From Nitrospinaceae bacterium (GTDB taxonomy: Bacteria > Nitrospinota > Nitrospinia > Nitrospinales > Nitrospinaceae): a DNA stretch of 64,000 nt. Each line of letters opens with the position of its first letter. Positions within the stretch are counted from its first letter, which is position 1. Below the pieces are notes generated by a model. That model made no database searches, had not been told where the DNA came from, and saw nothing but the letters and a program-made list of their open reading frames with translations. The position numbers and the translations under genes were made by a program. Where the stretch lies: NCBI GenBank assembly GCA_965223665.1, contig OZ245011.1, positions 2,528,001-2,592,000 of the forward strand. The letters run 5' to 3'. Below, piece after piece: positions 45,676-63,735 of the stretch.

Positions 45676-45720
45676 GGCACGCCTGGCAGGACTCGAACCT
45701 GCGACCTACGGATTAGAAGT
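45676..45720 (-). mobile_element. att site: 3' fragment of tRNA-Arg(TCT)
   Basis: Reverse complement ACTTCTAATCCGTAGGTCGCAGGTTCGAGTCCTGCCAGGCGTGCC covers anticodon loop to acceptor stem. The 5' half of the tRNA is absent and an integrase is adjacent. Confidence 0.9.
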
Positions 45721-45892
45721 ACATCGAATACTTTAATTTCCTTTCCTTCCTTGATCTTCCCATAAGTTCCCAATATAATAATTTCAGCTATTTATAAACC
45801 TTATCGAGAAAATTGTTTTTCTTCGAAAGTAGAGATGGGAAGTATTGGGAATGCAAAAATGTGATAAAAATGTGATAAAAGTAGACCCGCGG

Positions 45893-47098
45893 ATGAATAA
45901 CAAATCGGTCCACTGGGTTGGGACTAAATATCCCGGGGTGCAATTCAGGGAACATGAGACTCGCAAATTTAAAAGGCGATTAGACCGCTCTATCATCATT
46001 CGCTATCGAAAACACGGAAAATTAGTGAATGAAACTGTTGGTTGGGAAACTGATGGTGCCACTTTAGAAGAAGCGGCGAAACTACGTGGACAAATCATTC
46101 AAAATATTCGCTTAGGTTCTGGATTTCAATCTTTAAAAGAAAAGCGAGAGTTGGAGCAAACCAAACGAAAGAAGAAAATCGAAGAAAAGAAATCTAAAGA
46201 AATAGAAAATATATCTTTCGAACAATTAGCTCAAAATTATCTAGACTGGGCCAGGTCCCATAAAAAAAGTTGGCGTGATGACTACTCCCGCTACCAATAT
46301 CATTTGGGTCCATCTTTAGGGAAACTAGTTGCGAAAAAGATTAAAGTTTTAGAATTAGAACGATTCAAGAAAAAATTGAATCACAAAGGTCTTGCTCCAG
46401 GAACCATTCGTCATTGTTTAGTCTTAATCCGGCAAATCTACAACCGTGCCTCGCGGATAGGATTATTTGATGGTCCAAATCCGATTAAGGAAACCTCTCA
46501 AATTGATCGCCATTTTTTAAAAACACCTGATAACCGACGCTTACGGTTTTTGAGTCGAGATGAAGCAGATTCCTTACTTACGGAACTGAAGCAAAGAAGT
46601 CCGCAAGTGTATAACATGACCTTACTTTCGTTGCATACGGGTATGCGAGCCGGTGAAATATTTGCGCTTACTTGGCAAGATATAGACTTGGCCCATAAAA
46701 TTATCACTATTCGAAATCCTAAGAACAATGAAAGTCGGCAAGCGTATATGACACCGCAGGTTTTTGAAATATTGGGGCAATTAAAAAATGCTAACTCTAA
46801 AAGACAACATCTGATCTTTAGTAATCGCAAGGGAAACCAAATTAAAGAGATTTCGAATGTGTTTTCAAAGATTGTGCAACAGCTTGGGTTAAATGACGGG
46901 GTAACAGATTTAAGAAGCAAACTGGTATTTCATTCGATCCGGCACACGTTTGCAAGCTGGTTGGCTCTTCAAGGAGAAACCTTATTAACGATAAAGGAAT
47001 TAATGGGTCATAAAGATATAAACATGACAATGCGTTATGCTCATTTAATTCCAGATCAAAAAAGAAATGCAGTAATTAAACTGGGGATAGGAGAATAG
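45893..47098 (+). CDS. int: Tyrosine integrase
   Basis: Catalytic residues in TGMRAGE, NPKN, FHSIRHTFAS, LMGH, TMRYAH. Start uncertain (45845, 45851 or 45893). Confidence 0.95.
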   Translation: MNNKSVHWVGTKYPGVQFREHETRKFKRRLDRSIIIRYRKHGKLVNETVGWETDGATLEEAAKLRGQIIQNIRLGSGFQSLKEKRELEQTKRKKKIEEKKSKEIENISFEQLAQNYLDWARSHKKSWRDDYSRYQYHLGPSLGKLVAKKIKVLELERFKKKLNHKGLAPGTIRHCLVLIRQIYNRASRIGLFDGPNPIKETSQIDRHFLKTPDNRRLRFLSRDEADSLLTELKQRSPQVYNMTLLSLHTGMRAGEIFALTWQDIDLAHKIITIRNPKNNESRQAYMTPQVFEILGQLKNANSKRQHLIFSNRKGNQIKEISNVFSKIVQQLGLNDGVTDLRSKLVFHSIRHTFASWLALQGETLLTIKELMGHKDINMTMRYAHLIPDQKRNAVIKLGIGE

Positions 47099-47105
47099 GA
47101 ATAAA

Positions 47106-48071
47106 ATGAATGAATTAATAAAGTATTTAGAAATTCATCCTTCCTTTAACCAAAATACAAAACCTGAGCAATTAGAGAAAATTTTGAGAGGTCCATGGTG
47201 TCCATTACTTGGAAGAATTCCAAAACTCGGGCTGCCATTAAATTCACCCGAAAACAGGTGTTTGTTTATAATAATTGAATCAAGAAAATTATGGGGGATC
47301 GACTTTGAGCCAACTTTTAATAGATGTGGAAAAAATCCCGACTGGCCGAAAAAGAATAGTATAAATTCTTACCCCGAAAAGGAATTTGCGGAGATTGTTT
47401 TAAAGACGGCGCGTGAAATTGATCGGTTGTCACCGTCGATAATGTTGAATTCTGAAATTCGAGATCCCAAGAAAGATTATCTTTTAATGGAAGATGGATC
47501 TTACGCTATTTCTAAGGGTATTGATCAGGTTCCAATTCATGAAATACGAATTGTTGCGAATTCTTTGTTACGTCCAAGCTATCAAAAATTTAAAGATCAA
47601 CAACTTTTGGCAAGTCTAGCTATTTACAGTGCTTGGCATGTTTTTGAATTTTTGATAAGAAAATTTTCAGATGTAGATATAACTGAAATACTTCCCAGGT
47701 TATACCGGGCGGAAGGTTTATTAAGAACAGCAAAAATAATAGAGGGTAATGAAAAAGCCGAAGATTCAATAAAGTTAGGATTCCAAAAAGGACAAAAAGA
47801 AGGAATCTCAGTCCAAAATAGATTAAATGCCAAGAAACCCAGAAGGCCTGATCCGTTAAATGAATTTATTTTAAATATCCTTAAAAAAAATAAAGGCAAT
47901 CTAAATTCAAATCAAATGTGGCAGATTATTAAAGCAAATGTAGGCGAAGACTGTATAGTGACTGTGACCGATTCGGTTATTGAGTATGAAGATAAAAATT
48001 CCAGGATAAACTCGTTAAAGAAAAAATCTTTCCCTCCTCGATTCCATAGAATAAAAAAATTGCTCTTTTAA
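47106..48071 (+). CDS. Hypothetical island protein
   Basis: 321-aa ORF 7 nt after int with an AGGA RBS; basic C-terminus. Confidence 0.65.
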   Translation: MNELIKYLEIHPSFNQNTKPEQLEKILRGPWCPLLGRIPKLGLPLNSPENRCLFIIIESRKLWGIDFEPTFNRCGKNPDWPKKNSINSYPEKEFAEIVLKTAREIDRLSPSIMLNSEIRDPKKDYLLMEDGSYAISKGIDQVPIHEIRIVANSLLRPSYQKFKDQQLLASLAIYSAWHVFEFLIRKFSDVDITEILPRLYRAEGLLRTAKIIEGNEKAEDSIKLGFQKGQKEGISVQNRLNAKKPRRPDPLNEFILNILKKNKGNLNSNQMWQIIKANVGEDCIVTVTDSVIEYEDKNSRINSLKKKSFPPRFHRIKKLLF

Positions 48072-48170
48072 AATTTCAAAAGCGCGCTTTTGAAATTTTA
48101 CCAATGTAAATTAACTATCAATTATTAACCCAATGGAAAAGTTGGGAACTTTACATTGGAAAGGAGAATT

Positions 48171-48383
48171 ATGAATAAAGAAATCAACCCTAAAATGATA
48201 GCCCGCACAAATGTTCACGAGTTATTCCCTGGTCTTTCCTCTAAATACTTAGCCAATTTGAAATCACTGGGGAAAGGTCCTCAACCTTATAAAGTGGGAC
48301 GAAGAATTTTCTACCTTGTATCCGACATTGAAGGGTTTATGAAGAAAAATCCTCTTCCTTTAAAAGCTGGAAACCCTATTTAA
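48171..48383 (+). CDS. AlpA/excisionase-like HTH DNA-binding protein
   Basis: GLSSKYLANLKSLGKGPQPYKVGRRIFYLVSDI matches the MerR-like HTH pattern of Xis/AlpA proteins; AGGAG RBS. Confidence 0.8.
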   Translation: MNKEINPKMIARTNVHELFPGLSSKYLANLKSLGKGPQPYKVGRRIFYLVSDIEGFMKKNPLPLKAGNPI

Positions 48384-48501: not shown

Positions 48502-49596
48502 ATGAAATGGTTTAAACATATGACCGATGCTCAAGATGATGAATTTATTGCCGAATTGGAATCTCAGTATCGTGGATTTGATGGTCCTGGTCGATGGTGG
48601 AGATTGTTAGAAATCATTGGCAAGCATGTGGACCAAACAGGGAAGTGTGAAGCCATCTATTCTGTTTCGCAATGGTGTCAAAAGTTAAAAGTGACGCGTT
48701 CAGGTCTGCTTAAGTTTACAAACTTGGTGGTAATTTGGGGCAAAGTGGAAACCAAAACTATTGATACAAGAATGCTAATAAGATGCCCTAAGTTACTAGA
48801 AATAAGAGATGAATATACAAGGAAATCCGGACAATCTCCTGATAAACTCCAACCAGAAACAGAAGCAAAAACAAATTTAAGAAATAATAAAAAAGAAAAG
48901 AGTGTAGAAAAGCCTTCACTCTCAATGACTGTGAAACAAAAATTTACAAATCTAAAGCAACTTGGTCCTCCCGCATCTTTAAATGGCAATGTATCTGATA
49001 TTGATAAATTCTTAAACCAAGCTCAACGTGTTCATACTAAGATCCGGGGACCAATGATCCTAAATCAAAAAAGGGACGTTAAGGTAGCGCATCGGTTAGT
49101 AAAGGAAATTCCAGACTTCAAACGGCTCAACCTACTCTGGACAATTTTTCTTAATCTAAATAATTCCTGGCTTAACACCAACCCTGGTAGGCGCTGTTTG
49201 AGCGTGTTCCCAAAGTTTTTAAATGATTGCCAAGCAGAAGTTAATCGTTTGTTTAAAGCCCGGGATTACCGAAAACAAAATAGCAGACGGGGAAACAAAA
49301 CAACGCCAAAATATGAACCCTTAACTAGAGATGATCAAATCACTTGGCAAACAGTTTTGAAAGAAGTTGAGTCTTCTAACTTGCCAGAGAATTACCAAAC
49401 CTGGTTTACCCCAATTTATCCCTTAGGCCGCAAGGGGAAAAAATTAATTATTGCAGTTCCTAACGAATATTTTTCACGTTGTTTATCTGAAAACTATTTA
49501 AAGAGGATTATGAAAATATTGAATGAACTGGATAGTACAATTGAAAATGTTGAATTTATGGCAAAACCTGAAGAAAACATGGGTGCATTCAATTAA
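48502..49596 (+). CDS. Phage-type replication initiator with a C-terminal DnaA domain I-like region
   Basis: N-terminal MKWFKH.TDA.DD...G.G.WW.LLE.I and PKLLEIRDEY (replisome-organiser-like); C-terminal WQTVL...YQTWFTP...LIIAVPNEY....SENY. Confidence 0.75.
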   Translation: MKWFKHMTDAQDDEFIAELESQYRGFDGPGRWWRLLEIIGKHVDQTGKCEAIYSVSQWCQKLKVTRSGLLKFTNLVVIWGKVETKTIDTRMLIRCPKLLEIRDEYTRKSGQSPDKLQPETEAKTNLRNNKKEKSVEKPSLSMTVKQKFTNLKQLGPPASLNGNVSDIDKFLNQAQRVHTKIRGPMILNQKRDVKVAHRLVKEIPDFKRLNLLWTIFLNLNNSWLNTNPGRRCLSVFPKFLNDCQAEVNRLFKARDYRKQNSRRGNKTTPKYEPLTRDDQITWQTVLKEVESSNLPENYQTWFTPIYPLGRKGKKLIIAVPNEYFSRCLSENYLKRIMKILNELDSTIENVEFMAKPEENMGAFN

Positions 49597-49632
49597 TGGT
49601 CAATTGATTTTTAGTTGATATCATTTTTATAG

Positions 49633-49730
49633 CTTACGGGTCCTTCCTAGGGGTCGTGCCTAACGGGTGCGCGGCAGCACTGGATATCGCTAGAGAACTG
49701 TCCAAAAAATGTTTTGACGTTTTGACGCTT
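49633..49730 (+). other. Lambda-like cos site (cosQ, cosN, possible cosB repeats)
   Basis: TTACGGGTCCT...AACG-GGTGCGCGGCAG-CACTGG-ATA-TCGCTA, then TTTTGACG x2; a GC-rich patch directly upstream of terS. Confidence 0.7.
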
Positions 49731-49806: not shown

Positions 49807-50346
49807 ATGGAATTAGTTTCTCTTTATGAATATGAAAAAAGAACGGGAATCAAGCGTCAAAAAACTCACTACAATGTAAAAATTGGACGCCTCAAAACTT
49901 ATAAGGGAAAAATAAATGTAGATGAGGCCAATGAACTATTTGGCTTAATAGATAAGATTGAATCAAATCAAGAATCTTTTCATTCAAATAAATCCAATAA
50001 GAATGAAGAGGAATTCAATTACTATAAGGAACGAGCTATACATGAAAAGTTAAAAATACAACTCACACAATTAGAATTGGGAAGAAAGTCCGGTCAACTT
50101 GTGGAAATTGAATTAGTAGATCAGGAATTGAGTAAGTTAGTAACCGCAGTTCGCCAGAGGTTGTTGGCTTTACCTACCAAACTTACACCTCAACTAGTTA
50201 ATCAAAAATCTCCGGGGTTCATTAAAGAATTAATTACTGAAGCAATTTACGAAGCATTAAGTGAATTTCAACATTATAACCCGGAAAGCGGAAAAATTCT
50301 CTCCGAAAAACTCACATGCTCTCAAGGAGAAAGTGATAATTATTGA
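49807..50346 (+). CDS. terS: Terminase small subunit, lambda Nu1/Rpp-like
   Basis: N-terminal HTH; YYKERAIHEKLK.QL.QLE...SGQLV...V.......VRQRLLALP.KL.P coiled-coil pattern typical of Nu1-like TerS. Confidence 0.8.
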   Translation: MELVSLYEYEKRTGIKRQKTHYNVKIGRLKTYKGKINVDEANELFGLIDKIESNQESFHSNKSNKNEEEFNYYKERAIHEKLKIQLTQLELGRKSGQLVEIELVDQELSKLVTAVRQRLLALPTKLTPQLVNQKSPGFIKELITEAIYEALSEFQHYNPESGKILSEKLTCSQGESDNY

Positions 50347-50582: not shown

Positions 50583-52277
50583 ATGAAAGCTGGTATTACT
50601 TTCCTAGGTATAATTTTAATAATAATTCCTCTTACTTTTTCTGATATTTTTGCAGATGGGGAGCGCGGTCTCAGAGTAATTTTGACTGACAAACCCAAAA
50701 ATAAAGTGTTCTATAAGGAAAGTCATGCATTAATAATCGGTGCAACCAATTATACGCAAGGTTGGCCTAGTTTTCCTAACATCGAAAACGAAATTAACAA
50801 GATAAAAGAAATTCTTTCAAAAATTGGATTTGATGTTGAAGTATTAATGGATCCCACAAAAAGCCAAATGGTTTCGTATATATCAGATTTTGCAGACCAC
50901 TTCGGTCAAGAGATTGATTCTCGCATATTTCTTTATTTTATTGGTCACGGATATTCTCACAAAAATTTCTTTTCTCAGAAAACCGGATTCTTTGTACCGG
51001 TTGATGCACCGAAACCGAATAAAGATTTAGACGGATTTATAAAAAAAGCCTTTTCTTTAAATGAACTAGAGTCTATTACCAGTGGAATTAAAGCAAAACA
51101 TATTTTGTATCTATTTAATAGTTCCTTTACTAATGCCAATATGTCTTCCACTCCTTTTTCACAAAATGAAATAACTTTGGAAACCAACCAAGCTTCCAGG
51201 CAAATAATAATTGCTGATACTAATAGTTTATTGGTTGGGAAAAAACATGGGTTGGGGGAAATGTTTGTTAATGCTCTAAAAGGAATGGGAGACTTCAACA
51301 AAGATGGAAAAATAACCGGAAGTGAATTAGCTAAATACTTTCGTGATTCAATAAAAGAGTATTCAAATGAGAACTGGGATATACAGTTTGGAAACTTCCA
51401 AAGTTTGGAGAATGCAAAAGGGGATTTTGTTTTTTCAAAAATCTCCTCAGAGTTATCAGAAGATAAATCTATTCACTCTTATGAAAATTCAGAAAAAGAT
51501 GAAAACACGGACGATTTTAAAACCGAGACCTCTATTGATGAAAAGAAGCGTATTGCTGAGGAGGAGAGAAGGATAAAAGAGATAAAGGAAAAGCTGAAAT
51601 TATCAAGTTTGGAACCCCAAAAAAAGATTCCTTTTGTAACCCAATCTACTCCCCCTGAAGGAATGGTATTTGTTCTAGGTTCCGAATACCTAGCCGGTTC
51701 TGAGAAAACAGGAAGTGACTCTGTACCTTTACGAAAAGTATTTATTCAGAGTTTCTACATTGATAAAACAGAGGTAACCCAAGAGAAATATAAAAAAATC
51801 ATGGGAAGAAATCCCTCAAGGTTTAAAGGAGAAAATCTTCCTGTGGAAAGAGTTAGTTGGTCAAAAGCCCGAAAGTATTGCCAAAAAATAGGTAAACGAC
51901 TTCCTACAGAGGCAGAATGGGAATATGCTGCGAGGGGAGGAGCTGGAAATAATTCACTCGGAGATTATTGGTTCAATGGAAATACTCAACATAGTCAACC
52001 AGTTGGGAAGAAGGAACCCAATTCAATTGGATTATACGATATGCTTGGGAATGTGTGGGAATGGACCCAAGACTGGTATGACAAAAATTACTATGAAACC
52101 AGATTGGATAATAACCCTCTTGGCCCTAAAAAAGGAACTAAAAAAGTTTTACGTGGTGGAGCATGGAATTCATCCTTGGATATGATTCATCCCTCTTATC
52201 GAAGTTACTACGATCCCAGATACAAGAGTGCGACTTTTGGTTTTCGATGTGCGAAAAGCTTAAAAAATAACCAGTGA
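50583..52277 (+). CDS. Secreted caspase-like (peptidase C14 fold, catalytic Cys absent) plus FGE/SUMF1-domain protein
   Basis: SHALIIG..NY, FIGHG, but LFNSSF in place of DxC. C-terminal FYIDKTEVT, PVERVSW, RLPTEAEWEYAARG, DMLGNVWEW, FGFRC. Confidence 0.85.
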   Translation: MKAGITFLGIILIIIPLTFSDIFADGERGLRVILTDKPKNKVFYKESHALIIGATNYTQGWPSFPNIENEINKIKEILSKIGFDVEVLMDPTKSQMVSYISDFADHFGQEIDSRIFLYFIGHGYSHKNFFSQKTGFFVPVDAPKPNKDLDGFIKKAFSLNELESITSGIKAKHILYLFNSSFTNANMSSTPFSQNEITLETNQASRQIIIADTNSLLVGKKHGLGEMFVNALKGMGDFNKDGKITGSELAKYFRDSIKEYSNENWDIQFGNFQSLENAKGDFVFSKISSELSEDKSIHSYENSEKDENTDDFKTETSIDEKKRIAEEERRIKEIKEKLKLSSLEPQKKIPFVTQSTPPEGMVFVLGSEYLAGSEKTGSDSVPLRKVFIQSFYIDKTEVTQEKYKKIMGRNPSRFKGENLPVERVSWSKARKYCQKIGKRLPTEAEWEYAARGGAGNNSLGDYWFNGNTQHSQPVGKKEPNSIGLYDMLGNVWEWTQDWYDKNYYETRLDNNPLGPKKGTKKVLRGGAWNSSLDMIHPSYRSYYDPRYKSATFGFRCAKSLKNNQ

Positions 52278-52280
52278 TTT

Positions 52281-55200
52281 CTATTTAACCGCAATCACAA
52301 GGTTCCTCATTCCTGTGGGTATTACTGCGAAAGGATGCTGCGTACTGTCCAGTTCTGAATTTGGAATGGATTTCAATAAAATTCCTCGACTTTGCATAGC
52401 AGATAATACTTCAATATTTCGCTTAGGAACTTCTTTGTCTACATAATTTCTTAATGAAGTAAAAAATAATTTTCCATCTTTAAATCGAGCCTTACCTTTT
52501 ATCCCATCTATGATTGCCCGGGTGAAAACGCCGCCCTTTTCCGTTTCTAATCCAAGTTCCTGACGAGATGTTCCTGTATAAATAATAGAATTCACATCAT
52601 GAATATCTTTAGCTAATTTCTGAAGGTCTTTCGAGTTTTCACTAATCACTTCCCCAGCTTCGCAAGTATCAATAATTACCATGCGTCTGCCAAGGGTTTG
52701 ATCTAAGATTTTATGCAATTTTACCCAATCAAAGCTAGTCCCCGAAGTAGACACTTTTAACTGACTATTGGATTTTTTGATTTCAGAATCTGCTGTCAAA
52801 AAATGATAATTTCCCTTTTCGTCAGTTATCCCGTGACCCGCAAAAAAATAGATCGTAGTATCATTTGGTCCAATATTTTGTATCTGGTTCAATAAAAAGG
52901 TATCAATGTCTGAGGCTTTTATTAATTTCCCATCTTGATCAGTCAAAATATTCACAACAACATTTTTAAAAAGTTTTTTTCCTTTAATTTTAAAAAGTTG
53001 AGCCATATTGAAAGCATCCAGAGGAGGGGAATACAATTGTTGCTTCTCAGGTAAATTGGGATATTGACCTATCCCAATAGCATTAACATGCAAGGTACCT
53101 TCATTGTTTTCGTTTTTATCTTTTTTGTTATTTTTTACCCATCTTTGATCACCATTTTCTGCCCACAAATTTTCAACCAGAACCTTTATGTGGTTATTAC
53201 TTCTTGGAAGAAAAGTTTGAAAATGTAAAGTATCCCCAGGATTGACTCCAGAAAGATTTCTTTGCTCTTGGGGAAGGATTTGGAAACCATTTACATAAAT
53301 GGTTATCCGTTCGGGTACCGTAATCTTATTTTTCCCCAGTTTGATGTTTATATCTGTTTTCCCTGATTTGTCGGTCTGGATGGATGCAATTTTTACATTT
53401 ACCGGAGCTCGTTTGATTAACTCATCAACCGAAATTTTTTCCAGGCCGGCCTTTTTAATTGCCCGCGTTGAGGAACTTAAAGCAAGAGTATCTCTAATAA
53501 TATCAGGACGATAAAGAAATCGGCGAAATTGGGAAGCAGTGTAATAATCGGCTGGCTTATCATATCCTCTATTTACCCGCCAACCCACATAACGATCTCC
53601 TTTGGGAGAAGCATCATAAAACCCCTCAGGTGTCCAAGCAACCCACTCATCATCAAATCCATGAAAAATACTGAGAAGCAGGCTACCTGAAGATATATCC
53701 CAAATCTTTATTGTTTGATCCGCGGAGCCTGAAAATAGCCAGCGGTTATCAGGCGAAACCGATAAAGCCCAAACATCAGACGTATGACCAATAAAGTCAT
53801 TCACTTTTTTGCCATTTTCAATGTTGTAAGAAGTTAAAACACCGTGAGCACCCCCACTAATAATTAATTTCCCGTTGTGAGTTATGGTAACACTTCGGTG
53901 GTCAGAACCCGTAAACTGGTCTTTCTTTATCCTTTTATGAAAGACTCCCTTTTTATAAATGTTAAGAGTAGGATGAATATTTTTATTAGGTGTATCTATT
54001 GACCAGTTTTCTATTTTCTTAAAAGCCTGAAAATAATTTTTATCGTCTTGTATTAAAGAACCGACACCAAGATTAAAATCACCAGAGGGTTCCTGCAAAA
54101 TAAAACTTTTTAAGAGAGGAACATTGAACTTAAGGCAACTTTTTCCAGGACAAATTCTTTTTTTTCTCCAAGCAAGTCTCTTTCCCTCTTTTGAAATACC
54201 AATACCAAAAATTCCTTTTCCTTTTCCAACCAATTTTTTTATAACTTCTCCAGTAGATATGTCCCATAAATAAAATTCATGGTTTACTCCTCCACCTGTG
54301 AGAGCGATTTTTCCATTTGGAGAAATAGCTGTCGCTAATGTAATATTGTCATGTTTGCTAAAAAAAGATAGACGCTTCCCAGTTGGAATTTCAAAAACAT
54401 TGTTTATTGAGGTATCACCAGCAGCTCCAGTTAAAACTTTTTTCCCATCCGGAGAAATGGAAATATTTGCTACATCGGAACCCTGCACTCCTAAGATTTT
54501 TAAATATTTTCCAGTTAGGCCGTTCCATATTCGAATACTATTGTCCCGGCTTCCCGAAAGTATGTACTCCCCATTCGGAGTAAAAGCAACTGTATCAACA
54601 AAATCTATATGTCCTCTTAAGTTGGAAATTAGGTTGCCAGATGAAACATCCCATAGTTTTAACGTATTATCATGACTCCCTGTTACAACCATTGAGTCAT
54701 CCGGTGAAAAAGCGACTGCCGCAACTTTTCCTTTATGACCTTTCAATATATGTTTTGTTTTTCCAGTTTTTAGATTCCAAATTCTAGCAATATTATCAAA
54801 GCCTCCTGAGATCAAAAATTTACCACTATTTGAAAAAGCTAAGTCTAGAATAACGTTTGTATGCCCCTTTAATAATTTGATTATTTCACCAGTATGGAAA
54901 TCTATAATTCGAATATTTCCACATTGGCCGGGGCATTCATTGTGAAACCACCCTCCCAAAGCTAACAGATTATTATTGGGAGAAAGAGCCGCAGCGTATA
55001 TCATTCCTTCTGTTGCATTTCCAATTTGTCCCCTGAAAACTTTTGTGGTAATTCCTCTTTCAATATCTATCACACGGGCAGTTTTATCGTCAGAGATTGT
55101 AACCAAACTTTTACCATCTTTAGTAAAAAATGCATCTCTAATAATGGATGTATGACCTCCTGAATTAATTTCAAGAATAGGCTTTTCAAATGAATTTTTA

Positions 55201-55397
55201 GTATTACTAACCTTATTGAATGAAATATTAGTTCTATAGAATAATGGGGAGGTTAAGGATACGTTTTGAGGGGCAGCGTTTAACTTACTAGTGAAATGAG
55301 AAAAAAAAATAAAACAAATAGAAGTAATTATACTTAATATCAAATGCAATTTAGAAAGAGACCTGACAGGAAGGCCTATTTTGCATGTTTTTGACAT
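52281..55397 (-). CDS. WD40-repeat plus caspase (peptidase C14) protein, probably exported
   Basis: Many GH...WD repeats, EWVAWTPEGFYDAS linker, intact FFAGHG and IIDTCEAG dyad, N-terminal hydrophobic signal. Confidence 0.9.
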   Translation of the reverse strand: MSKTCKIGLPVRSLSKLHLILSIITSICFIFFSHFTSKLNAAPQNVSLTSPLFYRTNISFNKVSNTKNSFEKPILEINSGGHTSIIRDAFFTKDGKSLVTISDDKTARVIDIERGITTKVFRGQIGNATEGMIYAAALSPNNNLLALGGWFHNECPGQCGNIRIIDFHTGEIIKLLKGHTNVILDLAFSNSGKFLISGGFDNIARIWNLKTGKTKHILKGHKGKVAAVAFSPDDSMVVTGSHDNTLKLWDVSSGNLISNLRGHIDFVDTVAFTPNGEYILSGSRDNSIRIWNGLTGKYLKILGVQGSDVANISISPDGKKVLTGAAGDTSINNVFEIPTGKRLSFFSKHDNITLATAISPNGKIALTGGGVNHEFYLWDISTGEVIKKLVGKGKGIFGIGISKEGKRLAWRKKRICPGKSCLKFNVPLLKSFILQEPSGDFNLGVGSLIQDDKNYFQAFKKIENWSIDTPNKNIHPTLNIYKKGVFHKRIKKDQFTGSDHRSVTITHNGKLIISGGAHGVLTSYNIENGKKVNDFIGHTSDVWALSVSPDNRWLFSGSADQTIKIWDISSGSLLLSIFHGFDDEWVAWTPEGFYDASPKGDRYVGWRVNRGYDKPADYYTASQFRRFLYRPDIIRDTLALSSSTRAIKKAGLEKISVDELIKRAPVNVKIASIQTDKSGKTDINIKLGKNKITVPERITIYVNGFQILPQEQRNLSGVNPGDTLHFQTFLPRSNNHIKVLVENLWAENGDQRWVKNNKKDKNENNEGTLHVNAIGIGQYPNLPEKQQLYSPPLDAFNMAQLFKIKGKKLFKNVVVNILTDQDGKLIKASDIDTFLLNQIQNIGPNDTTIYFFAGHGITDEKGNYHFLTADSEIKKSNSQLKVSTSGTSFDWVKLHKILDQTLGRRMVIIDTCEAGEVISENSKDLQKLAKDIHDVNSIIYTGTSRQELGLETEKGGVFTRAIIDGIKGKARFKDGKLFFTSLRNYVDKEVPKRNIEVLSAMQSRGILLKSIPNSELDSTQHPFAVIPTGMRNLVIAVK

Positions 55398-55486
55398 TTT
55401 TAGATCTTGTATTGACTAAAAAAATATTAATTTTTTTTTAAAAAGAAATACTTCGTATTCTAAATAATTATACAATGAAATTAAAT

Positions 55487-57670
55487 TTATTGATCACCTT
55501 GACAGGCTTGGTCTCCTTCAATACAGCCTCCGGCATCTAACTCCTCTGTTTCTTGTTCAAGTAGGACTATCATATCTGCCGGGTCAGTTTTCTCAGGTTG
55601 TCTTTCTTCACTTTTAGTTTTAGTAATTTGGCGAGTAGATTGAACCGCCTGTTCAGCGGGTTCATTAGTTGTCTGGCTGTCCACTCGGGCTTGGCATGCT
55701 GGTCCGCTGCAATTTCTACCTCCCCCTCCGGGATCCCGTTTATATCCTCTTGGTTGTCCTAAAAGCACAAGCTGACCGCCCTCTATCGAACGGTCTGGAC
55801 CCCTTGTATCCAAGGTAATATTGTCTAAAAAGGAAAGATCCCGAAATTTCCAATCTAACACTTGCCCTTCGGTAACGGAATTTTCATCTTCATCTACCAC
55901 AGTATCTAAATTTGATATTAGAATCCCAATATTCCCTCCTCTGGTTGTAATTCTATTGTTTGTTTCTTCAAATATAATTTCATTTGTTTCAAAAAGTACA
56001 GAGGGGGTTGGGTATTTCTGGTCCCCAGGCGTAATTCCTCCGTCAATACCGTCTATTAAAAATTTTTCACCATCTTTACGTAAGGTTTGTTTAAGATCCA
56101 AGATATTATCTGAAAGCCTTTCTAAAATTATTGCTTCATCTGCAATTAAATGAATGAATGTATCTTTTCCTATTCTTTCCAAGGCTTCCTCCGAAACAAC
56201 CTCTGTTCCTAGTTCCGCATTATCTCTACTGTCTGGAACCGGATCTGTTTGAAAACCACTAAGATCATTTTCGATGGATCCTCCATCAAATTCAGTTCTA
56301 CTATCTGAAAATATCGAGATTTCACCAATAGGTTTTTCCAAGAGTGGTCTTCCAAATTCCTCATCAGTGATTCTCAATATTCTTGGATCTAACAATAGAG
56401 CTCCAGCTGAGCCATTTGTAGAACCTGCATCTACAAATCCAGCAAAAGTGAGGTTTTCTTTTCCTGATACTTCTACCAATCCACCGTCGCCCGAAACTGA
56501 ACCACCTCGTGAATCAATATTTCCAAAATAACGTGTCGTTCCATCCGCCCAAAGAATGACCTTGCCACCGTCTCCGTTTTCCAAAGCAGATGCATCAATT
56601 ATTGTATTGGGCCCTACATAAGTTTGAGTAGCATTCGGTACCTCTCCCTTACCCTGGAAATCTCCTCCGACTAATGCAGTTCCTCCTCCAGATACTCCCG
56701 AAACATTTATAAATGCATATTGAAATAACCCTACCTTATCTCCCAACACATGAACCGTACCACCCATATCCCCTGATTCATTGCCAGATGCATCCAATTC
56801 GCCGGTTACAGCAGTAATTCCATTCTCTCCACCCATCAGCCAGATTTCCCCATTTTTCTCCTGGAGAGTATTTGCCCGGATTCGACCTGAATGATTCACC
56901 GTATTACGAATTACGGAACCTGCATCCAACGCTGAAAGTATTACTCTTCCACCATCTGCTTCAATTATTCCGGTATTTAATACTCTATTTTCAAGAATGT
57001 TACCTTGATCATCAAGAACATCCCCTTCCACTGCTTCAGATATTGCGAAGTTAATCAAACCATCACCCGCAAAATCAAGAGTAACCTCAGTACCTGAAGC
57101 CAAGGCCACAGACCCAAGGTTTGCCGTTATGGTCCCTTTGTTGTATACCGCCGGAGCAAGTAATCCTATTGTGGTTCCCTCAATATGCCCTTCATTAATA
57201 ATTGCAGACAAGGGATTATTTGGATCTTGAGAAAACAAATAATTTTGATTCAAAAAATCCTGGTCTGAAATATTCAATGTAGTTGCTACTAAGCCTCCGA
57301 CATTAATACGGGCATCTTGACCAAAAATAATTCCTGAGCGGTTCGTAAGAAAAACTTTTCCATTCGAGGATAAACTTCCCAAAATAGCACTGGGATTAGC
57401 CCCTACCACTCGATTGAGCGCAACAGCATTTGAATTGGGTTGAGAAAAATGAACAGACTCAGCTTTTCCAATACTGAAGGAATTCCAATTGGTTATCAGT
57501 TGTTGGGAGGATTGGTTAATCACCATACTCTTCGGATCAGGTTGGTGAATATTTCCTTGACCAGATGTGATTTGACCTCCTTGGGGAAGTGCAAAGGAAG
57601 AAAGAGGATTAGCAAAATAAAGGATAATTAGAAAGCTGAGAAAACTTTTCTTGAAAAATATTTTATTCAT
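55487..57670 (-). CDS. TpsA / filamentous-haemagglutinin N-terminal (TPS) domain exoprotein
   Basis: Signal peptide then ALPQGGQITSG, NWNSFSIG, LNRV.G..PS.I.G.L.SNG.VFL.N, and GG.VEVSG...LLLDP beta-helix repeats. Confidence 0.9.
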   Translation of the reverse strand: MNKIFFKKSFLSFLIILYFANPLSSFALPQGGQITSGQGNIHQPDPKSMVINQSSQQLITNWNSFSIGKAESVHFSQPNSNAVALNRVVGANPSAILGSLSSNGKVFLTNRSGIIFGQDARINVGGLVATTLNISDQDFLNQNYLFSQDPNNPLSAIINEGHIEGTTIGLLAPAVYNKGTITANLGSVALASGTEVTLDFAGDGLINFAISEAVEGDVLDDQGNILENRVLNTGIIEADGGRVILSALDAGSVIRNTVNHSGRIRANTLQEKNGEIWLMGGENGITAVTGELDASGNESGDMGGTVHVLGDKVGLFQYAFINVSGVSGGGTALVGGDFQGKGEVPNATQTYVGPNTIIDASALENGDGGKVILWADGTTRYFGNIDSRGGSVSGDGGLVEVSGKENLTFAGFVDAGSTNGSAGALLLDPRILRITDEEFGRPLLEKPIGEISIFSDSRTEFDGGSIENDLSGFQTDPVPDSRDNAELGTEVVSEEALERIGKDTFIHLIADEAIILERLSDNILDLKQTLRKDGEKFLIDGIDGGITPGDQKYPTPSVLFETNEIIFEETNNRITTRGGNIGILISNLDTVVDEDENSVTEGQVLDWKFRDLSFLDNITLDTRGPDRSIEGGQLVLLGQPRGYKRDPGGGGRNCSGPACQARVDSQTTNEPAEQAVQSTRQITKTKSEERQPEKTDPADMIVLLEQETEELDAGGCIEGDQACQGDQ

Positions 57671-57713
57671 GACTCCCCCAAGTATAAAAATATCAAAAAA
57701 ATATCCTTTGAAA

Positions 57714-59477
57714 TTAAAAAGTCAAAATTCCATTTACAAGCCAAGTATGATCACTCCCATCAGAGGGCCTTGGTCCTGACAGAGGCTTACTGTAACTTAC
57801 GGCAAATGAAAAAGCCGGGATCCAAAACTCAGCTTTTAATTTTGGAATATTGATTTGCAAACCAAACCCATATCCAGAGATATATTCATCATTAGATTCC
57901 CCCGGCAAAGCATCAATAACAAAAACACCCCCGTAATCAATAAATCCAATAAAAGAAAAAATATCCTTTAATGACAAACCATTGATGCCCAAAGGTATAT
58001 CTACAGGGAACGGTAAAACATATTCAGCAGAAACTGCAAATCCATGGTCTCCTGAAAACTCTGCCAAGGGATACCCTCGAACTGTACCTACACCCCCAAT
58101 GGCAAATAAGTCCGGGGCCAGAACCCTAGAGCTTGCTATTTGCCCTGACCCTTTTAATATGAAATAACTATTTAATACATTTATATTTTGATACCGAGTT
58201 ATTACTGCATACCCAATGGTCGCATCATCATTTCCTCCTCGGTCTAAAGGAAGAAGATTACTCTCGTCAAAAACCGTTTGCTGACCTCTTAAATCAAAAA
58301 ACGTCCACCCTAAAAAATTATCTCGTATATTTCCCCTAATCGCTATAAAAGCATCCCCAATATCATCATCACTGGTTTTGATAGTATCAAACTGGAAGTT
58401 ATTATAAATTCTGTATTCAAATCCTCCGAATAAACCAATTTGAATTGATCGAGATCTGAATACAGGGATTCCCAATTCAATGTTAAATAAATTTGCATCC
58501 CCTCCTCCTCTTAATGCCGAAAGAGATTGTCCCAGTGTAAAATCTGAATAAGTGTAAGAAAACTTTAAAGAAAACCCGAGGCTATTAAAAAAATATAAAT
58601 AAGAGGCATTGATATAATTTAAATCCTCGTCGGTTTTGATTCCTCTAAAATAAATTTGATCTCCAAGACTCAAAAGGTTCGCAACTAAAGCCGACACACC
58701 AAATCTGTTTCCGCCTGTAAAACGGGATCCAAAATTATCACCGTCAATAGAAATAGAATAATTTTGGGTTTCAGTAATTTGAAGGACCAGATCGGAAGTG
58801 CCTGGAAGTTCTCCTGGACGTAAAGTGGATCGAACAGTAACGCCCATAAGATCATTTAATTGCAAAAGCAAACTTTCAAGATTTTGTTCCCTTAAAGGAG
58901 CTCCTCCCGTAAGTTTTTTTAGTCGGGCTCTGATATCATTAGAATCAATCTTGTTGTTACCCAATATTTCAATTTGATCTACCCTACCTTCTGCAATTAT
59001 AATTTTTACTAGACCATCTAATATTTTCTGTTGTGGAATATAGGCTTCAGATAGAATAAAACCTTCTTCACCATAGAAAGAAGTTATCTTATTCGCAATT
59101 TGATTCAATTCCTCTACAGTCATTTTCTTATTTGGAGAAACTTCTATAATCTCAGATAATTTTTGGTCACTAAAAACCGTATTGCCTTCAAAAATAATTT
59201 GTTTTACCAATACCGATGGACCTTTTAACCTTTCCGGTGCTTTGACTTTTGGTCCTTTCGTACCTGTATCCGGTATTGAAATTTCTGGTTGTTTTTTTTC
59301 GGGAGGTCGAACCGTGGGTTGAGATTTTCGAAGGGATCTATCAATAACACCTGATTTACCAGCATCAGGAACTTGGGAAAGGGAAAAGTCTACAAAACCT
59401 AGAATTATTACAAAAGAAAGAAAAAACCCAACAAAAACAGGTCGAACAGTTAGAATTAGCATAGTGAAGATCACCAA
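57714..59477 (-). CDS. TpsB (ShlB/FhaC/HecB) outer-membrane transporter
   Basis: POTRA motifs (FEGNTVFS, ITSFY...GFILS..YIPQQ, EGRV), DNFGSRFTG, IGGVGTVRGY (VRGY loop), C-terminal F. Confidence 0.92.
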   Translation of the reverse strand: MVIFTMLILTVRPVFVGFFLSFVIILGFVDFSLSQVPDAGKSGVIDRSLRKSQPTVRPPEKKQPEISIPDTGTKGPKVKAPERLKGPSVLVKQIIFEGNTVFSDQKLSEIIEVSPNKKMTVEELNQIANKITSFYGEEGFILSEAYIPQQKILDGLVKIIIAEGRVDQIEILGNNKIDSNDIRARLKKLTGGAPLREQNLESLLLQLNDLMGVTVRSTLRPGELPGTSDLVLQITETQNYSISIDGDNFGSRFTGGNRFGVSALVANLLSLGDQIYFRGIKTDEDLNYINASYLYFFNSLGFSLKFSYTYSDFTLGQSLSALRGGGDANLFNIELGIPVFRSRSIQIGLFGGFEYRIYNNFQFDTIKTSDDDIGDAFIAIRGNIRDNFLGWTFFDLRGQQTVFDESNLLPLDRGGNDDATIGYAVITRYQNINVLNSYFILKGSGQIASSRVLAPDLFAIGGVGTVRGYPLAEFSGDHGFAVSAEYVLPFPVDIPLGINGLSLKDIFSFIGFIDYGGVFVIDALPGESNDEYISGYGFGLQINIPKLKAEFWIPAFSFAVSYSKPLSGPRPSDGSDHTWLVNGILTF

Positions 59478-59773
59478 GAAGAATTCAGGTTAAGCGCATT
59501 GTTACTTTGATATTTTAATTGCTGTTTTTTAGGGTGATCTTGCTATTTCATGTCTAAAAAGTCAACTGTTTTTTTTCCGAAAATGATTGGTTAGTTTACA
59601 AAATATTCTTAAAGCAGGTGGGCGAGAAAAAGGAAAGAAAATGAGAGTAAATATAATCAATTTACAAAAATCCAAGCAAATTAATTAAACTAAAGTTAAA
59701 ATAAACCCTATATTTTCCAAAATTTACTTTACATCCAACTATGACTGCAAAAACTACAAAAATTGGTTATTTT

Positions 59774-60817
59774 TTAAGGAACGGTTTCGAATCTCCAGCT
59801 ACTTTTATAAAATTCAACGGGTTGTGACGAATCAGAACCAAGCAGTTTAACACCACGAGAAACCAGTTTGTCATATTTGACTTTTGTTCCTTTGAATTGA
59901 TTTAATCCAGAACCTATTGGAATTAAATCTGTCGTCCCTAATTGAGTTTCACTGGCAAATACGGTTACCGTGTCAATTCCAAAAGGTGGAGAAGATTCTA
60001 TTTCAAACTTATCTCCCTTGAGTTTGTCGGGTATCTCGTAAATCTGCCCTCTCTTAAAAAAATTATTGGTTCTTGCCTTATTAGGAAGCAGTTGAATAAC
60101 ATTACCATCTAAATCTGTATCAATTATATTTGCGAAAAAATCATGATTGCCCTGTAAATAAATAATTATCTTCTCCCCTTCTTTATATTGTTTCTTTTCG
60201 GTCCATACCCTCACGGTGAGAGGAGACCCCTTTTCTTTTAATAAATTTGATAAACTTTTGGGTTGAAAAGTCTGCACTTTTTTAACATTTGAACCAACTT
60301 TTCCTTTATCAAATTGCTCCTGATTATTGGCAAGATAGTTTTTCTCGGAAGCATTAATTTTAGAACTGGAGTTTGAGAGTTCAAGAATATATTCAATTTT
60401 TGCATTTATTCGGACATGGTATTTTGAGGTCTTTTTATCAAAACCATCATCAATCCGCTCTAATAAAGTTACATAGTTTCCATCTTTATTTTTGACAAGG
60501 TGAAAATCAAAGTATTTATTTTTTAATTTTGTCTTTGACATGATTATATTCTTTGAATTCTCAACAGCTTTAAGTTTAGCATCTTGTAATGCCTTTTCCC
60601 TAGCTACTTCCAAAGATTCATTTGGGCCTACATAATAATAACCATTGCTTTGCCGAATTACTGAGCGGGTTTCTTCCTGTGGGACAATTTCTAATCCACG
60701 AAATTGCTGTGACGATGCATTAGATGCGTTAACCATGCAAAGAATATAAATAGCAATCATAAATTTGCCCATAGCTAACAAAAAATGATTTTGAAACATG
60801 TTTTCCTCAATATTCAT
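59774..60817 (-). CDS. Exported DUF4384-domain protein with an N-terminal LPP20/FlgT-like region
   Basis: AREKALQDAKLKAVE; LTVRVWTEKKQYKEGE...GNVIQLLPN...YEIP...PPFG.DTV.VFAS. Confidence 0.8.
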   Translation of the reverse strand: MNIEENMFQNHFLLAMGKFMIAIYILCMVNASNASSQQFRGLEIVPQEETRSVIRQSNGYYYVGPNESLEVAREKALQDAKLKAVENSKNIIMSKTKLKNKYFDFHLVKNKDGNYVTLLERIDDGFDKKTSKYHVRINAKIEYILELSNSSSKINASEKNYLANNQEQFDKGKVGSNVKKVQTFQPKSLSNLLKEKGSPLTVRVWTEKKQYKEGEKIIIYLQGNHDFFANIIDTDLDGNVIQLLPNKARTNNFFKRGQIYEIPDKLKGDKFEIESSPPFGIDTVTVFASETQLGTTDLIPIGSGLNQFKGTKVKYDKLVSRGVKLLGSDSSQPVEFYKSSWRFETVP

Positions 60818-61014
60818 AACAACCTCTAAATGAAAAAAATCTTATCGAGAAAGTTTAAACTAAAATGAATTTTTATCTGTTTCAGGAAGGAAAAACGAGT
60901 GAAAAAAATATTTAAATAAAAGAAAGTATTAAATTTCTTTTCCCAATTTTAAAAATAAACAAATTTTAAAATGAAACTTTCCAAAATAAAATAATTTGGG
61001 GATCTGGAATTTCT

Positions 61015-63428: not shown

Positions 63429-63735
63429 TGAAACCTTTGCATTTAAGAATATTTTTCTAAATAAGTAAATTATCCAAACTTCATCTATCACGCGAACAAT
63501 TGAAACTCAAGAAAATACAAATTCAATAGTTTTAAATCTAACCGGAAAAAAAATTCAGTTTTGGGGTAGGAGGTGACTAAACTCAGAAAAACCTTAAAGA
63601 GAAGATGGAGAAAAATTATCATACTAACCCTTCGCATAGAAAAATTTCCCTTGAGAGACAGTGACAGCTTTAAAGTACAAATCGATTTAGCAAAACAAAT
63701 AAACCTTTTGGGAAACTTACGAAATAGTATAAAAA

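Follow-up and report, generated by a model that had tools for sequence, protein, structure and literature searches.

The window analysed is a stretch of 64,000 nucleotides of a Nitrospinaceae genome; positions refer to this window unless stated otherwise. Its right part contains the beginning of an element which is integrated at a tRNA-Arg gene and carries a cos-like site directly followed by a gene for a small terminase (TerS). The same genome harbors two phages, a prophage on contig C1 (C1 prophage) and one represented by the phage contig C2 (C2 phage). The following features were assigned:

45676..45720, − strand: left attachment repeat, 45 nt identical to the 3' part of tRNA-Arg(TCT) (blastn-short, ARAGORN)
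45845..47098, + strand: tyrosine integrase, 417 aa (Pfam Phage_integrase, 3.9e-33; phrog_1, 5.7e-65)
47106..48071, + strand: 321-aa ORF (phrog_6149 only, E 0.021; no Pfam, NCBIfam or PADLOC family)
48156..48383, + strand: 75-aa protein, weakly excisionase/regulator-like (phrog_10458, 7e-5; phrog_66, excisionase and transcriptional regulator, 1.1e-3; no Pfam match)
48502..49596, + strand: replication-initiator-like protein (Rep), 364 aa, with a C-terminal DnaA_N domain (Pfam DnaA_N, 7.4e-10)
49636..49694, + strand: putative cos core block comprising cosQ, spacer, cosN and the start of an I2-like segment; 49/59 identity to the C1 prophage site
49638..49645, + strand: cosQ-equivalent GGGTCCT(T), invariant in 12/12 aligned sites including lambda, four of them chosen by a pattern that itself includes GGGTCCT(T)
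about 49660-49683, + strand: putative cosN, enclosing the predicted cohesive end
49666..49677, + strand: predicted 12-nt 5' cohesive end GGTGCGCGGCAG, placed solely by its register with lambda
49684..49711, + strand: I2-equivalent segment, TCGCTAG followed by an A-tract, named by analogy to lambda I2 (PMC4669245, accessible part)
49712..49727, + strand: tandem of two TTTTGACG copies, candidate TerS-binding site and R3-equivalent (cosB), bp 47-62 from the predicted end
49807..50346, + strand: TerS of the lambda Nu1 family, 179 aa (phrog_57, 5e-21)
49855..49862, − strand: third, inverted TTTTGACG copy, possible R2-like site, bp 190-197, within the terS coding region
50583..64000, no strand assigned: first part of a cargo region of about 33 kb, which reaches the tRNA beyond the window (Pfam, PADLOC, PHROGs)
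G000:C1:2612330-2612406 (about 84330 in window coordinates, beyond the window): intact tRNA-Arg(TCT) with the second 45-nt copy (blastn-short, ARAGORN)

The element is integrated at tRNA-Arg and lacks structural genes

Exact 45-nt repeats located 38,655 bp apart bound the element at tRNA-Arg. The corresponding site is empty in G012, a genome of the same genus: the tRNA is present, synteny resumes there and the intervening DNA is absent. A third att copy was sought in the genome and not found; a repeat-based att search inside 44900-50700 gave nothing convincing, the true partner being located outside the window. The element is thus no small island of 5 kb; its length of 38,655 bp corresponds to 90% of the length of the C1 prophage (42,804 bp) and 105% of that of the C2 contig (36,972 bp). 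The element could also represent two elements with the inner att site lost.

Rep has DnaA_N/Phage_rep_org_N clusters as its atlas neighbours and has homologues in the Rep proteins of the C1 prophage (tblastn; 35% identity, E 1.5e-63) and the C2 phage (40%). Behind terS, the cargo region encodes a caspase-FGE protein, a WD40 protein, a TpsA/TpsB-type secretion system and DUF4384 proteins, followed by Dcm and Vsr, MzaC/MzaD-like proteins and a methyl-directed restriction enzyme. Head, tail, TerL or lysis families were found for none of the 29 element ORFs of at least 70 aa (5 plus 24 in the cargo); the sole "tail protein" match (phrog_11262, 5.5e-9) falls on the FGE-sulfatase domain of the caspase-FGE protein.

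Anatomy of the cos-like site

GGGTCCT is located at 49638-49644, ACG at 49663-49665 and TCGCTA at 49687-49692, the gap between the latter two being 21 nt; the TTTTGACG copies at 49712-49719 and 49720-49727 form a perfect tandem. The first-pass annotation had given this motif, tandem and spacing correctly to the base, and the lambda string quoted there, including the 21 nt from ACG to TCGCTA, agrees with NC_001416. In this record cosQ lies at 48473-48479, the right end reads ...TTACG and the left end begins with the 12-nt cohesive end. GGGTCCT and ACG are separated by 18 nt in the island as compared to 20 nt in lambda; the 18-nt spacing from cosQ to ACG is found in all 11 non-lambda sites of the alignment.

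The predicted cohesive end is anchored by ACG before the left nick and by C after the right nick, both as in lambda, and this C is common to 11/12 aligned sites. According to the accessible part of PMC4669245, the CG dinucleotides flanking the nicks are highly conserved among lambda-like phages. At the predicted island nicks the left CG is present, and the right flank reads CA versus CG in lambda and the C1 prophage. The motif (T)GCTAG with the following A-run is present in most rows of the alignment. R3 occupies bp 50-65 in lambda and bp 48-60 in N15 (PMC9026076, accessible part); the TTTTGACG pair at bp 47-62 thus lies at the R3 position and may be regarded as cosB-like by position, as had been proposed. 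The inverted TTTTGACG copy is located 135 bp downstream of the direct pair. Inverted GTGGGCA copies are likewise contained in the C1 prophage terS.

Assembled contigs of four runs from one study were inspected; they yielded no termini and the integrated form only. One contig of 17,436 nt bridges cos and is the integrated or uncut state. Two contig joints were seen, 45073 to 45675 (in X1 and X3, a single contig in each) and 48519 to 49636 (one X1 contig); in both, the shorter side comprises no more than 27-30 letters.

Similarity to lambda and to related loci

The cos sites of lambda, 21, phi80 and N15 agree with the island site in the cosQ heptamer, the ACG left flank, the C after the predicted right nick and the 21 nt from ACG to TCGCTA. 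As in lambda-type cos regions, a repeat stands at the R3 position and terS, of the Nu1 family, follows directly. Differences concern the cohesive end, of which only 6/12 bases match lambda, and cosB, which is R3-I1-R2-R1 in lambda and a head-to-tail pair of 7-8-nt repeats in the island, nearer to the simple N15 type. Furthermore, the host of the island belongs to the Nitrospinaceae order and is no enterobacterium, and the island site is part of an element lacking TerL.

In local alignment to the 62-nt lambda cos junction, the window site obtained a score of 15. Of 144,974 genome chunks, about 15 reach this score, which corresponds to the 99.99th percentile. When 50 kb of E. coli BLR(DE3) were searched by nhmmer with profiles built without lambda, the top match fell on lambda cosQ, the E values being 0.22 and 0.47. 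Within the window, ACGGGTCCTT occurs once (0.12 expected), and TTTTGACG occurs seven times (3.88 expected), i.e., it is not enriched, three of the seven copies lying within 151 bp. Likeness to lambda by itself is marginal and not significant at the sequence level; the case for a cos site rests on the relatives.

Twelve TerS loci with upstream sequence were collected from the same bacterial order through the protein alone. Seven of them carry GGGTCCTT, 17 variable nt and ACGG upstream of terS, i.e., the same cosQ/cosN arrangement, which bears out the lambda layout proposed upstream of the island terS. The other five, more distant loci do not contain GGGTCCT; three show a possible variant and two nothing recognisable. 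The eight sites that had not been selected by a DNA pattern (seven via TerS, and lambda) have 15 invariant columns, which consist of the GGGTCCTT octamer and scattered cosN positions, and the spacer varies. Between the island and the C1 prophage, 49/59 positions of 49636-49694 are identical, compared to only 13/60 and 15/60 in the 60-nt flanks. A profile of the seven sites matched 49636-49694 with an nhmmer E of 2.9e-13, this site being a training member, and in the 4.35-Mb genome it found the three cos sites, all training members, and nothing else.

In 7/7 loci, a tandem of 7-8-nt repeats begins at bp 47-48; the genome-wide chance of a start within a 6-nt window is 7e-4 per locus. The repeats comprise five different sequences, which co-vary with the N-terminal helix-turn-helix of TerS: three loci with GTGAACA repeats have TerS N-termini 77-97% identical, as compared to 17-51% for loci with other repeats. 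Two further metagenome loci, with positions counted by hand, show the same tandem-repeat feature. Judged against its relatives, the cos-like layout is clearly non-random in sequence.

Comparison of 49600-49810 with 50,697 phage records by blastn yielded short chance-level matches only (E at least 2); the exact island cosN pattern had no match in viral contigs, and the island/prophage-type cos pattern had none in metagenome contigs. A loose cos pattern matched nine times in genome contigs, five of these in GC-rich genomes without further cos features, which are probably chance.

Among the relatives, full phages have cos between a gpZ-like gene and terS-terL-portal. The combination of cos and terS without terL was found in two other genomes: G041:C22 is a 14,268-bp island at tRNA-Lys with genes for Rep and an HK97-type capsid protein as well as NACHT/STAND and SieA-like genes, and in G040:C16 an integrase gene follows terS. 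Both have GGGTCCT upstream of terS; homologous islands lacking this motif, named at the outset as an argument against a cos site, were thus not encountered among the closer relatives. The G040 genome additionally contains a complete phage whose repeats are likewise GTGAACA.

The island encodes a Nu1-family small terminase

The ORF at 49807 had been proposed to encode TerS, and it belongs to the Nu1 family: residues 1-174 match positions 10-189 of the 199 positions of phrog_57, the profile which lambda Nu1 itself matches at 1.3e-76. Alignment of a 31-sequence TerS profile with Nu1 (hhalign) gave a probability of 86% and an E of 5e-6. Direct BLASTP against lambda Nu1 was not significant (E 0.25), Pfam and NCBIfam gave no match, and a word-based protein search returned only the protein itself. 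A PDB search with the TerS profile yielded weak generic HTH matches to residues 3-41 (E 0.065-0.9) and did not retrieve the Nu1 domain.

Island TerS is 34% identical to the C1 prophage TerS (E 1e-27), and its core (residues 70-160) is closest to that protein with 48-49%, including an identical run of 13 residues. A basic C-terminal tail is absent from three island TerS proteins and present in all four phage TerS proteins. For a complex of prophage TerL residues 1-220 with island TerS, the predicted score was 0.13 versus a mark of 0.32.

Candidate helpers in the same genome

The C1 prophage is integrated at tRNA-Glu and possesses a complete lambda-like head and tail module. The Pfam families GpA_ATPase and GpA_nuclease were found in its TerL, and its portal belongs to the lambda family; the resident phages are characterized by a gpA-type TerL, a portal of the lambda family and tail genes of the gpZ and gpJ types. 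A search for the island cosN in candidate helpers, suggested by the first-pass annotation, led to this prophage: its predicted cohesive end is identical to that of the island (12/12) and 13/17 spacer bases match. The predicted end of the C2 phage differs from the island's at 2/12 positions. Judged by these sequences, the tRNA-Glu prophage is the best helper candidate. However, the island repeat and TerS N-terminus are nearer to the C2 phage than to the C1 prophage (TTGAC core; 42% vs 24% identity), and the assignment of a helper is therefore not clean.

A probable helper-dependent element of phage size

The presence of a cos-like site and an own terS without genes for virus particles implies that the island probably spreads via the packaging machine and capsids of a co-resident lambda-like prophage. 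Going by sequence comparison, we consider it rather probable that the element is a satellite of phage size which depends on a helper and has a private specificity of TerS and cosB, in which 49636-49727 would be a lambda-type cos and 49807-50346 would encode the cognate TerS. The element would have retained int, an Xis-like gene, rep, cos and terS from a lambda-like siphophage and would carry about 33 kb of cargo instead of TerL and virion genes. Upon induction of a resident lambda-like phage, it would excise and replicate via its own Rep. Island TerS may then bind the private TTTTGACG repeats at the R3 position, and its conserved central and C-terminal half may recruit the gpA-type TerL of the helper, either directly or via mixed TerS oligomers. 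TerL would nick cosN, generating the predicted 12-nt 5' end at 49666-49677, and packaging into helper capsids would stop at the next cosQ/cosN. As the element is 90% as long as the prophage, an unmodified head of the helper would be filled by a single cos-to-cos unit.

A more far-reaching version of this model, a "cargo-filled phage chromosome", is proposed only tentatively. It assumes a family of helper-dependent islands in the Nitrospinaceae order in which nothing but int, xis, rep, cos and terS of a lambda-like phage has been kept. The window member would have exchanged its virion genes for the cargo at nearly helper length and would be packaged cos-to-cos in unmodified heads, and 14.3-kb relatives would carry a capsid gene instead. 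The cosQ/cosN read by TerL would be common to island and prophage, and the DNA-binding end of TerS and the cosB repeat would be private; these private parts would let the island compete with its helper for the helper's own TerL.

Alternative explanations

The resemblance to cos might be fortuitous, or the site might be another element, such as a structured RNA, an att site or a regulatory site. The modest lambda score, which about 15 genome chunks equal or surpass, and the nhmmer E values of 0.2-0.5 on lambda would fit such a reading; we nevertheless regard it as very improbable, since the motif recurs upstream of Nu1-family terS in seven of twelve loci found through the protein alone and in full phages occupies the place between the gpZ-like gene and terS-terL-portal. 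In addition, Rfam gave no family at gathering score for 44000-53000 (the sole match, HPnc0260 at 45596-45707, has E 0.96 and 34.5 bits vs a gathering score of 59 and lies away from cos), the fold z-score is −0.64, and the true att sites are elsewhere. A relic is harder to dismiss, namely a lambda-like prophage of the resident lineage at tRNA-Arg that lost terL through lysis and gained unrelated genes, with cos and terS as functionless leftovers. A decayed prophage would look alike in its rep-cos-terS order, which is collinear with the resident phages, and in its homologous Rep; the element is also prophage-sized and tRNA-integrated like the C1 prophage, and at the right flank of the predicted nick CA takes the place of CG. 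Against decay, the terS frame is intact across the whole family profile, and the cos block is conserved between flanks at random level. The island's own perfect tandem repeat stands exactly at bp 47-62, and the DNA-binding end of its TerS has diverged; the two give the impression of a specificity pair that is being maintained. Moreover, the combination of cos and terS without terL in two other genomes has different borders and sizes, and deletional decay would not be expected to exchange all virion genes for about 33 kb of cargo and to arrive at 90% of the helper length. We therefore consider a relic unlikely.

Island TerS and cos may alternatively serve mainly to capture or misdirect a lambda-like terminase and thus act in an abortive or interfering manner, transfer being absent or incidental. 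The cargo is rich in defence-type genes (Dcm and Vsr, MzaC/MzaD-like proteins and the methyl-directed restriction enzyme), the G041 island contributes its NACHT/STAND and SieA-like genes, and the missing basic tail of the three island TerS proteins recalls Rpp, which is shorter than TerS and blocks phage packaging, as described in the accessible part of PMC9026076. Such a decoy, however, would need neither cosQ, a termination signal, nor an adjoining integrase/Rep module, and the known Rpp interference proteins promote island packaging too (same source, same part). Nothing observed here tells interference from transfer; a role in defence without regular transfer appears to us distinctly improbable, even less likely than a relic. 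The helper-dependent satellite is thus the reading that we prefer.

Comparison with known satellites

Phage satellites typically have about one third of the size of their helper, roughly 10-18 kb. With 38,655 bp, the element greatly exceeds known satellites in size; it resembles them in its integrase with defined att sites, the absence of virion and lysis genes among the 29 ORFs of at least 70 aa, and its own Rep-like replication gene.

Gram-negative cos-type PICIs such as EcCICFT073, as portrayed in the accessible parts of PMC6092414, PMC9026076 and PMC6739421, likewise possess int, an AlpA/Xis-like gene and rep. Their cos also agrees with the island in that cosQ/cosN match those of the helper (in the island, of the candidate helper), cosB is unrelated and a gene for a winged-HTH protein, putative in the island, follows directly downstream. 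These PICIs are about 15 kb in size and encode Rpp, a shorter TerS-like protein which must pair with the helper TerS; in contrast, the island of 38.7 kb encodes a full-length TerS of 179 aa. Rpp is characterized as short, TerS-like and without a TerL-binding end, and the match of the island protein extends over the full TerS profile. At this element size, neither cos-skipping nor a small capsid would be needed.

The pac-type SaPIs, in the sections of PMC6092414 at hand, follow the logic proposed for the island, combining an own small terminase of private specificity with the large terminase and capsids of the helper. They differ from the island by headful (pac) packaging, an unrelated TerS family, usually remodelled capsids and a size of about 15 kb. 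SaPIbov5, and P4 with P2 (compare PMC5052747), are helper-dependent elements carrying the cohesive-end site of the helper, as the island would be. They are not known to have a terS of their own and make small capsids, whereas the island has a TerS/cosB pair that is putatively private, and a gene for capsid size was not detected in it. The cf-PICIs resemble the G041:C22 island, in which a gene for an HK97-type capsid protein adjoins cos and terS; as far as the accessible part of 10.1101/2022.09.08.507074 describes, cf-PICIs possess the complete genes for head and packaging, TerL included, unlike the G041 island, which has the capsid gene only, and the window island, which has none.

Significance

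Literature on Nitrospinota prophages described no satellite or cos site among the matches listed. The present analysis extends the cosQ-cosN-R3 layout of lambda, known from coliphages, to phages of a distant lineage of marine nitrite oxidisers. Comparison within this lineage separates fixed parts, namely the octamer of cosQ, the flanks of the predicted nicks and a repeat beginning at bp 47-48, from parts that are free to vary, namely the sequences of spacer and repeat, and the co-variation of the repeat with the TerS N-terminus provides a ready-made specificity table for the recognition of DNA by TerS. If the island is mobilised, it would represent a kind of satellite new to the literature searched, as large as a phage genome and equipped with a Nu1-type TerS and a cosB of its own in place of Rpp or a copied cos, and about 33 kb of defence and secretion genes would be moved with each capsid-load.

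Cos site in the window

A site with the anatomy of a lambda-type cos lies in the intergenic region between two ORFs, where it forms a G+C-rich island within A+T-rich DNA. The region contains the following features.

48502-49596, 364-aa ORF
49638-49644, cosQ heptamer GGGTCCT
49663-49665, ACG
49687-49692, TCGCTA
49712-49719 and 49720-49727, TTTTGACG twice in perfect tandem
49807-50346, 179-aa ORF (terS)
49855-49862, third copy of TTTTGACG, inverted, within terS

The heptamer, the 21 nt between ACG and TCGCTA and the tandem pair had all been reported in the first-pass annotation and were found as described; the lambda string given there agrees with NC_001416 (cosQ at 48473-48479, likewise 21 nt between ACG and TCGCTA). 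The sole difference of this layout from the lambda string is the stretch from GGGTCCT to ACG, which measures 18 nt in the window and 20 nt in lambda. The predicted right nick flank of the island is CA, not CG.

Resemblance of these sequences to lambda alone makes a marginal case against chance. The lambda 62-nt junction, joined in a script, was locally aligned with 144,974 chunks covering the whole genome; the window site scored 15, corresponding to the 99.99th percentile, and about 15 chunks scored as high. Profiles built without lambda were searched with nhmmer against 50 kb of E. coli BLR(DE3), and their best match fell exactly on the lambda cosQ with E-values of 0.22 and 0.47. In the window, TTTTGACG is not enriched (7 copies observed, 3.88 expected). 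The case against chance comes from the comparison with related sites.

Conservation of the cos layout upstream of terS

A TerS profile search of 102 genomes of the same order yielded 14 loci in 10 genomes; two are cut by contig ends and 12 have upstream sequence. In seven of the 12, GGGTCCTT is followed by 17 variable bases and ACGG(G/A)T.CG..GC. Three more distant loci (L019, L013 and L015 on contigs G003:C22, G008:C130 and G006:C37) have AAGGTACT(C/A)CC in place of GGGTCCTTCC, which may be a variant termination signal, followed by a stretch that we read as cosN-like. Nothing recognisable as cos was found upstream of terS in the remaining two. Across eight sites, namely the seven loci and lambda, none of them picked by DNA pattern, 15 columns are invariant; these comprise the octamer and scattered cosN positions, and the spacer varies freely. 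Judged from these alignments, the cos layout upstream of terS is a family trait.

Pattern scans retrieved four IMG/VR contigs, in every one of which an ORF of 175-207 aa begins 94-135 nt after cosQ, six sites in metagenome contigs and nine in genome contigs. Two of the nine are TerS loci already found by profile, and two are from Microbulbifer with a lambda-like right flank; the other five, from GC-rich genomes, look like chance.

The 179-aa ORF as small terminase

Profile comparisons identify the 179-aa ORF as a small terminase of the Nu1 family. It matches phrog_57 over almost its full length (5e-21), lambda Nu1 matches the same family (1.3e-76), and hhalign of a 31-sequence TerS profile with Nu1 gave a probability of 86% (E 5e-6). 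Direct BLASTP to Nu1, Pfam and NCBIfam returned nothing for this ORF.

Each of the four phage-borne TerS in this group (207, 193, 189 and 199 aa) has a basic, lysine/arginine-rich C-terminal tail; the three island-borne TerS (179, 172 and 177 aa; window 49807-50346, L024 18843-19361 and L025 14696-15229) all lack it.

Related phages in the same genome

The window's own genome contains a second copy of the cos site (81% identity over 75 nt). The block common to both copies spans 49636-49694 with 49/59 positions identical, and the 60-nt flanks match at only 13/60 and 15/60. The second copy belongs, as cos, to a genuine prophage on contig C1, which comprises 42,804 bp between exact 45-nt repeats of a tRNA-Glu 3' part. 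A gpZ-like gene adjoins this cos on the upstream side, and the genes after it are arranged as follows.

L005, minus strand, TerS, 207 aa (phrog_57, 2.3e-25)
L005, minus strand, TerL (phrog_15, 1e-247; Pfam GpA_ATPase and GpA_nuclease)
L005, minus strand, head-tail joining protein, lambda-family portal, protease/capsid fusion
L005, minus strand, head closure, tail terminator, major tail, chaperone and tape measure proteins
further along, minor tail proteins and gpJ-type central fibre

The gpZ-like gene (Minor_tail_Z / phrog_27) lies directly upstream of cos in four of four full phages (L005 10099-10632; L022 2499-3041; L026 5058-5669; L027 5076-5645) and so comes last on the packaged chromosome, apart from the other tail genes. 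Additionally, the C1 prophage encodes its own cytosine methyltransferase and type II restriction endonuclease (L056 8406-11390); a modification conflict with the Dcm, Vsr and methyl-directed restriction enzyme of the island is conceivable.

Contig C2 (36,972 bp) has another terS, the third, preceded by this cos layout; it is a related phage with tail genes 89% identical to those of the C1 prophage. The C2 TerL is distributed over two ORFs that do not share a frame (L022 3658-4689 and 4730-5587, matching phrog_15 positions 334-673 and 693-950), owing either to a frameshift in the gene or to an error of assembly; if the split is real, the C2 phage would itself need the TerL of another phage.

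Tandem repeats at the position of R3

With the base following ACG counted as bp 1, a perfect tandem repeat with a 7-8-nt unit starts at bp 47 or 48 in all seven order-level loci. The chance rate of such duplications in this genome is 1.2e-4 per base and 7e-4 per 6-nt window.

Table. Tandem repeats downstream of cosN.
Island: TTTTGACG x2
C1 prophage: GTGGGCA x3
C2 phage: GTTGACA x2
Three loci: GTGAACA x2
One locus: GGTTAAC x2
Two metagenome loci (from bp 48, hand-counted): GGGTTACT x2; TGTTTAC x3

Passages of PMC9026076 place R3 at bp 50-65 in lambda and bp 48-60 in N15 and describe the cosN-cosB distance as critical. By analogy, the repeats lie where a TerS-binding site would be expected and are candidates for it. 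The proposal that the TTTTGACG pair is cosB-like thus gained support, since its position fits R3 and the repeat sequence varies with the TerS N-terminus; binding is predicted. TerS N-termini of the three GTGAACA loci are 77-97% identical and those of every other pair 17-51%, but two of the three loci are close kin, and the co-variation therefore amounts to a few independent comparisons, not seven. Like the inverted TTTTGACG copy in the island terS, inverted GTGGGCA copies lie within terS of the C1 prophage. In both the TTGAC core of its repeat and the N-terminus of its TerS, the island resembles the C2 phage more closely than the C1 prophage.

Borders and gene content of the island

The left end of the island, 45676-45720, matches 45 nt of the tRNA-Arg(TCT) 3' part exactly; the intact tRNA-Arg(TCT) with the second copy lies 38,655 bp rightward, beyond the window, and no third att copy was found. 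In G012, a genome of the same genus, the tRNA-Arg is present, synteny resumes there and the intervening DNA is absent. The island encodes, in order, an integrase, a 321-aa protein of no assigned function, a 75-aa weakly Xis-like protein and a Rep-like protein with a DnaA_N domain, followed by cos and TerS. The cargo comprises a caspase-FGE protein, a WD40 protein, a TpsA/TpsB pair, DUF4384 proteins, Dcm and Vsr, MzaC/MzaD-like proteins, a methyl-directed restriction enzyme and a pentapeptide protein. No head, tail, TerL or lysis family was detected among its 29 ORFs of at least 70 aa. The island Rep shares 35% and 40% identity with those of the two resident phages; the island therefore descends from, or exchanged genes with, the resident phage lineage. 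A 17,436-nt contig of a public run extends from rep through cos and terS into the first cargo genes; the assembly may itself derive from that run, and the contig is therefore no independent evidence.

In one contig of public run X1 (depth 5.45, shorter side 27 letters), rep is missing and 48519 is joined directly to 49636, where the conserved cos block begins; the contig could stem from a related element of that community or from misassembly. Next to the island, 39156-44942 (minus strand) encodes a 1928-aa HYR/CBM96/metallophosphatase surface protein, which has several paralogous copies in G012 (82-84% DNA identity) and a contig depth in public runs much above that of the island.

Two further genomes of the same order carry loci without TerL. 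Contig G041:C22 (66598-80917; L025, L054, L055) harbors a 14,268-bp island between 52-nt repeats at tRNA-Lys(CTT), with genes for an integrase, a 228-aa protein, Rep, an HK97-type capsid and an 82-aa protein, then cos, TerS, a 1649-aa NACHT/STAND protein and a SieA-like gene. It is very nearly a third as long as the 42,804-bp C1 prophage; the one-third ratio is typical of satellites, and the base-exact match is surely coincidence. On contig G040:C16, an integrase gene comes after cos and terS, and the GTGAACA repeats of this locus recur in a full phage (C19) of the same genome.

Proposed packaging of the island

Cos-carrying satellites (EcCICFT073-type islands with Rpp, SaPIbov5, P4) and satellites with their own TerS (pac-type SaPIs) are already known, and part of PMC9618062 reports TerS homologues in marine VEIMEs. 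In the portions of the open literature covered, we did not come across a cos-type island that encodes a full-length Nu1-family TerS of its own together with a private cosB, a satellite as large as a helper genome, or any of these features in Nitrospinota.

According to sections of PMC4669245 and PMC9026076, cosB-bound TerS positions TerL to nick cosN in lambda, and termination requires cosQ, cosN and I2, not cosB specificity. The search for the same cosN in candidate helper phages was positive for the C1 prophage, which shares with the island cosQ, the predicted 12-nt cohesive end (12/12) and 13/17 spacer bases; the predicted end of C2 differs at 2/12 positions. TerS of island and C1 prophage are 34% identical overall, with 24% in residues 1-50, which by analogy correspond to the DNA-binding end of Nu1, and 49% in residues 70-160, including a 13-residue identical run; apparently, the core was kept and the DNA-binding end diverged. 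By analogy with lambda, the shared parts would be exactly those read by TerL and the translocating complex, and the differing part that read by TerS, which is why the island is read as helper-dependent.

The lambda packaging window extends over roughly 78-105% of genome length. The island is 90% as long as the C1 prophage, and an unmodified head would hold one unit. The cos anatomy is secure, whereas the biology of the island is what we infer: most likely, it is a helper-dependent element whose own TerS would direct the TerL of a helper onto island DNA, either by direct recruitment or via mixed TerS oligomers.
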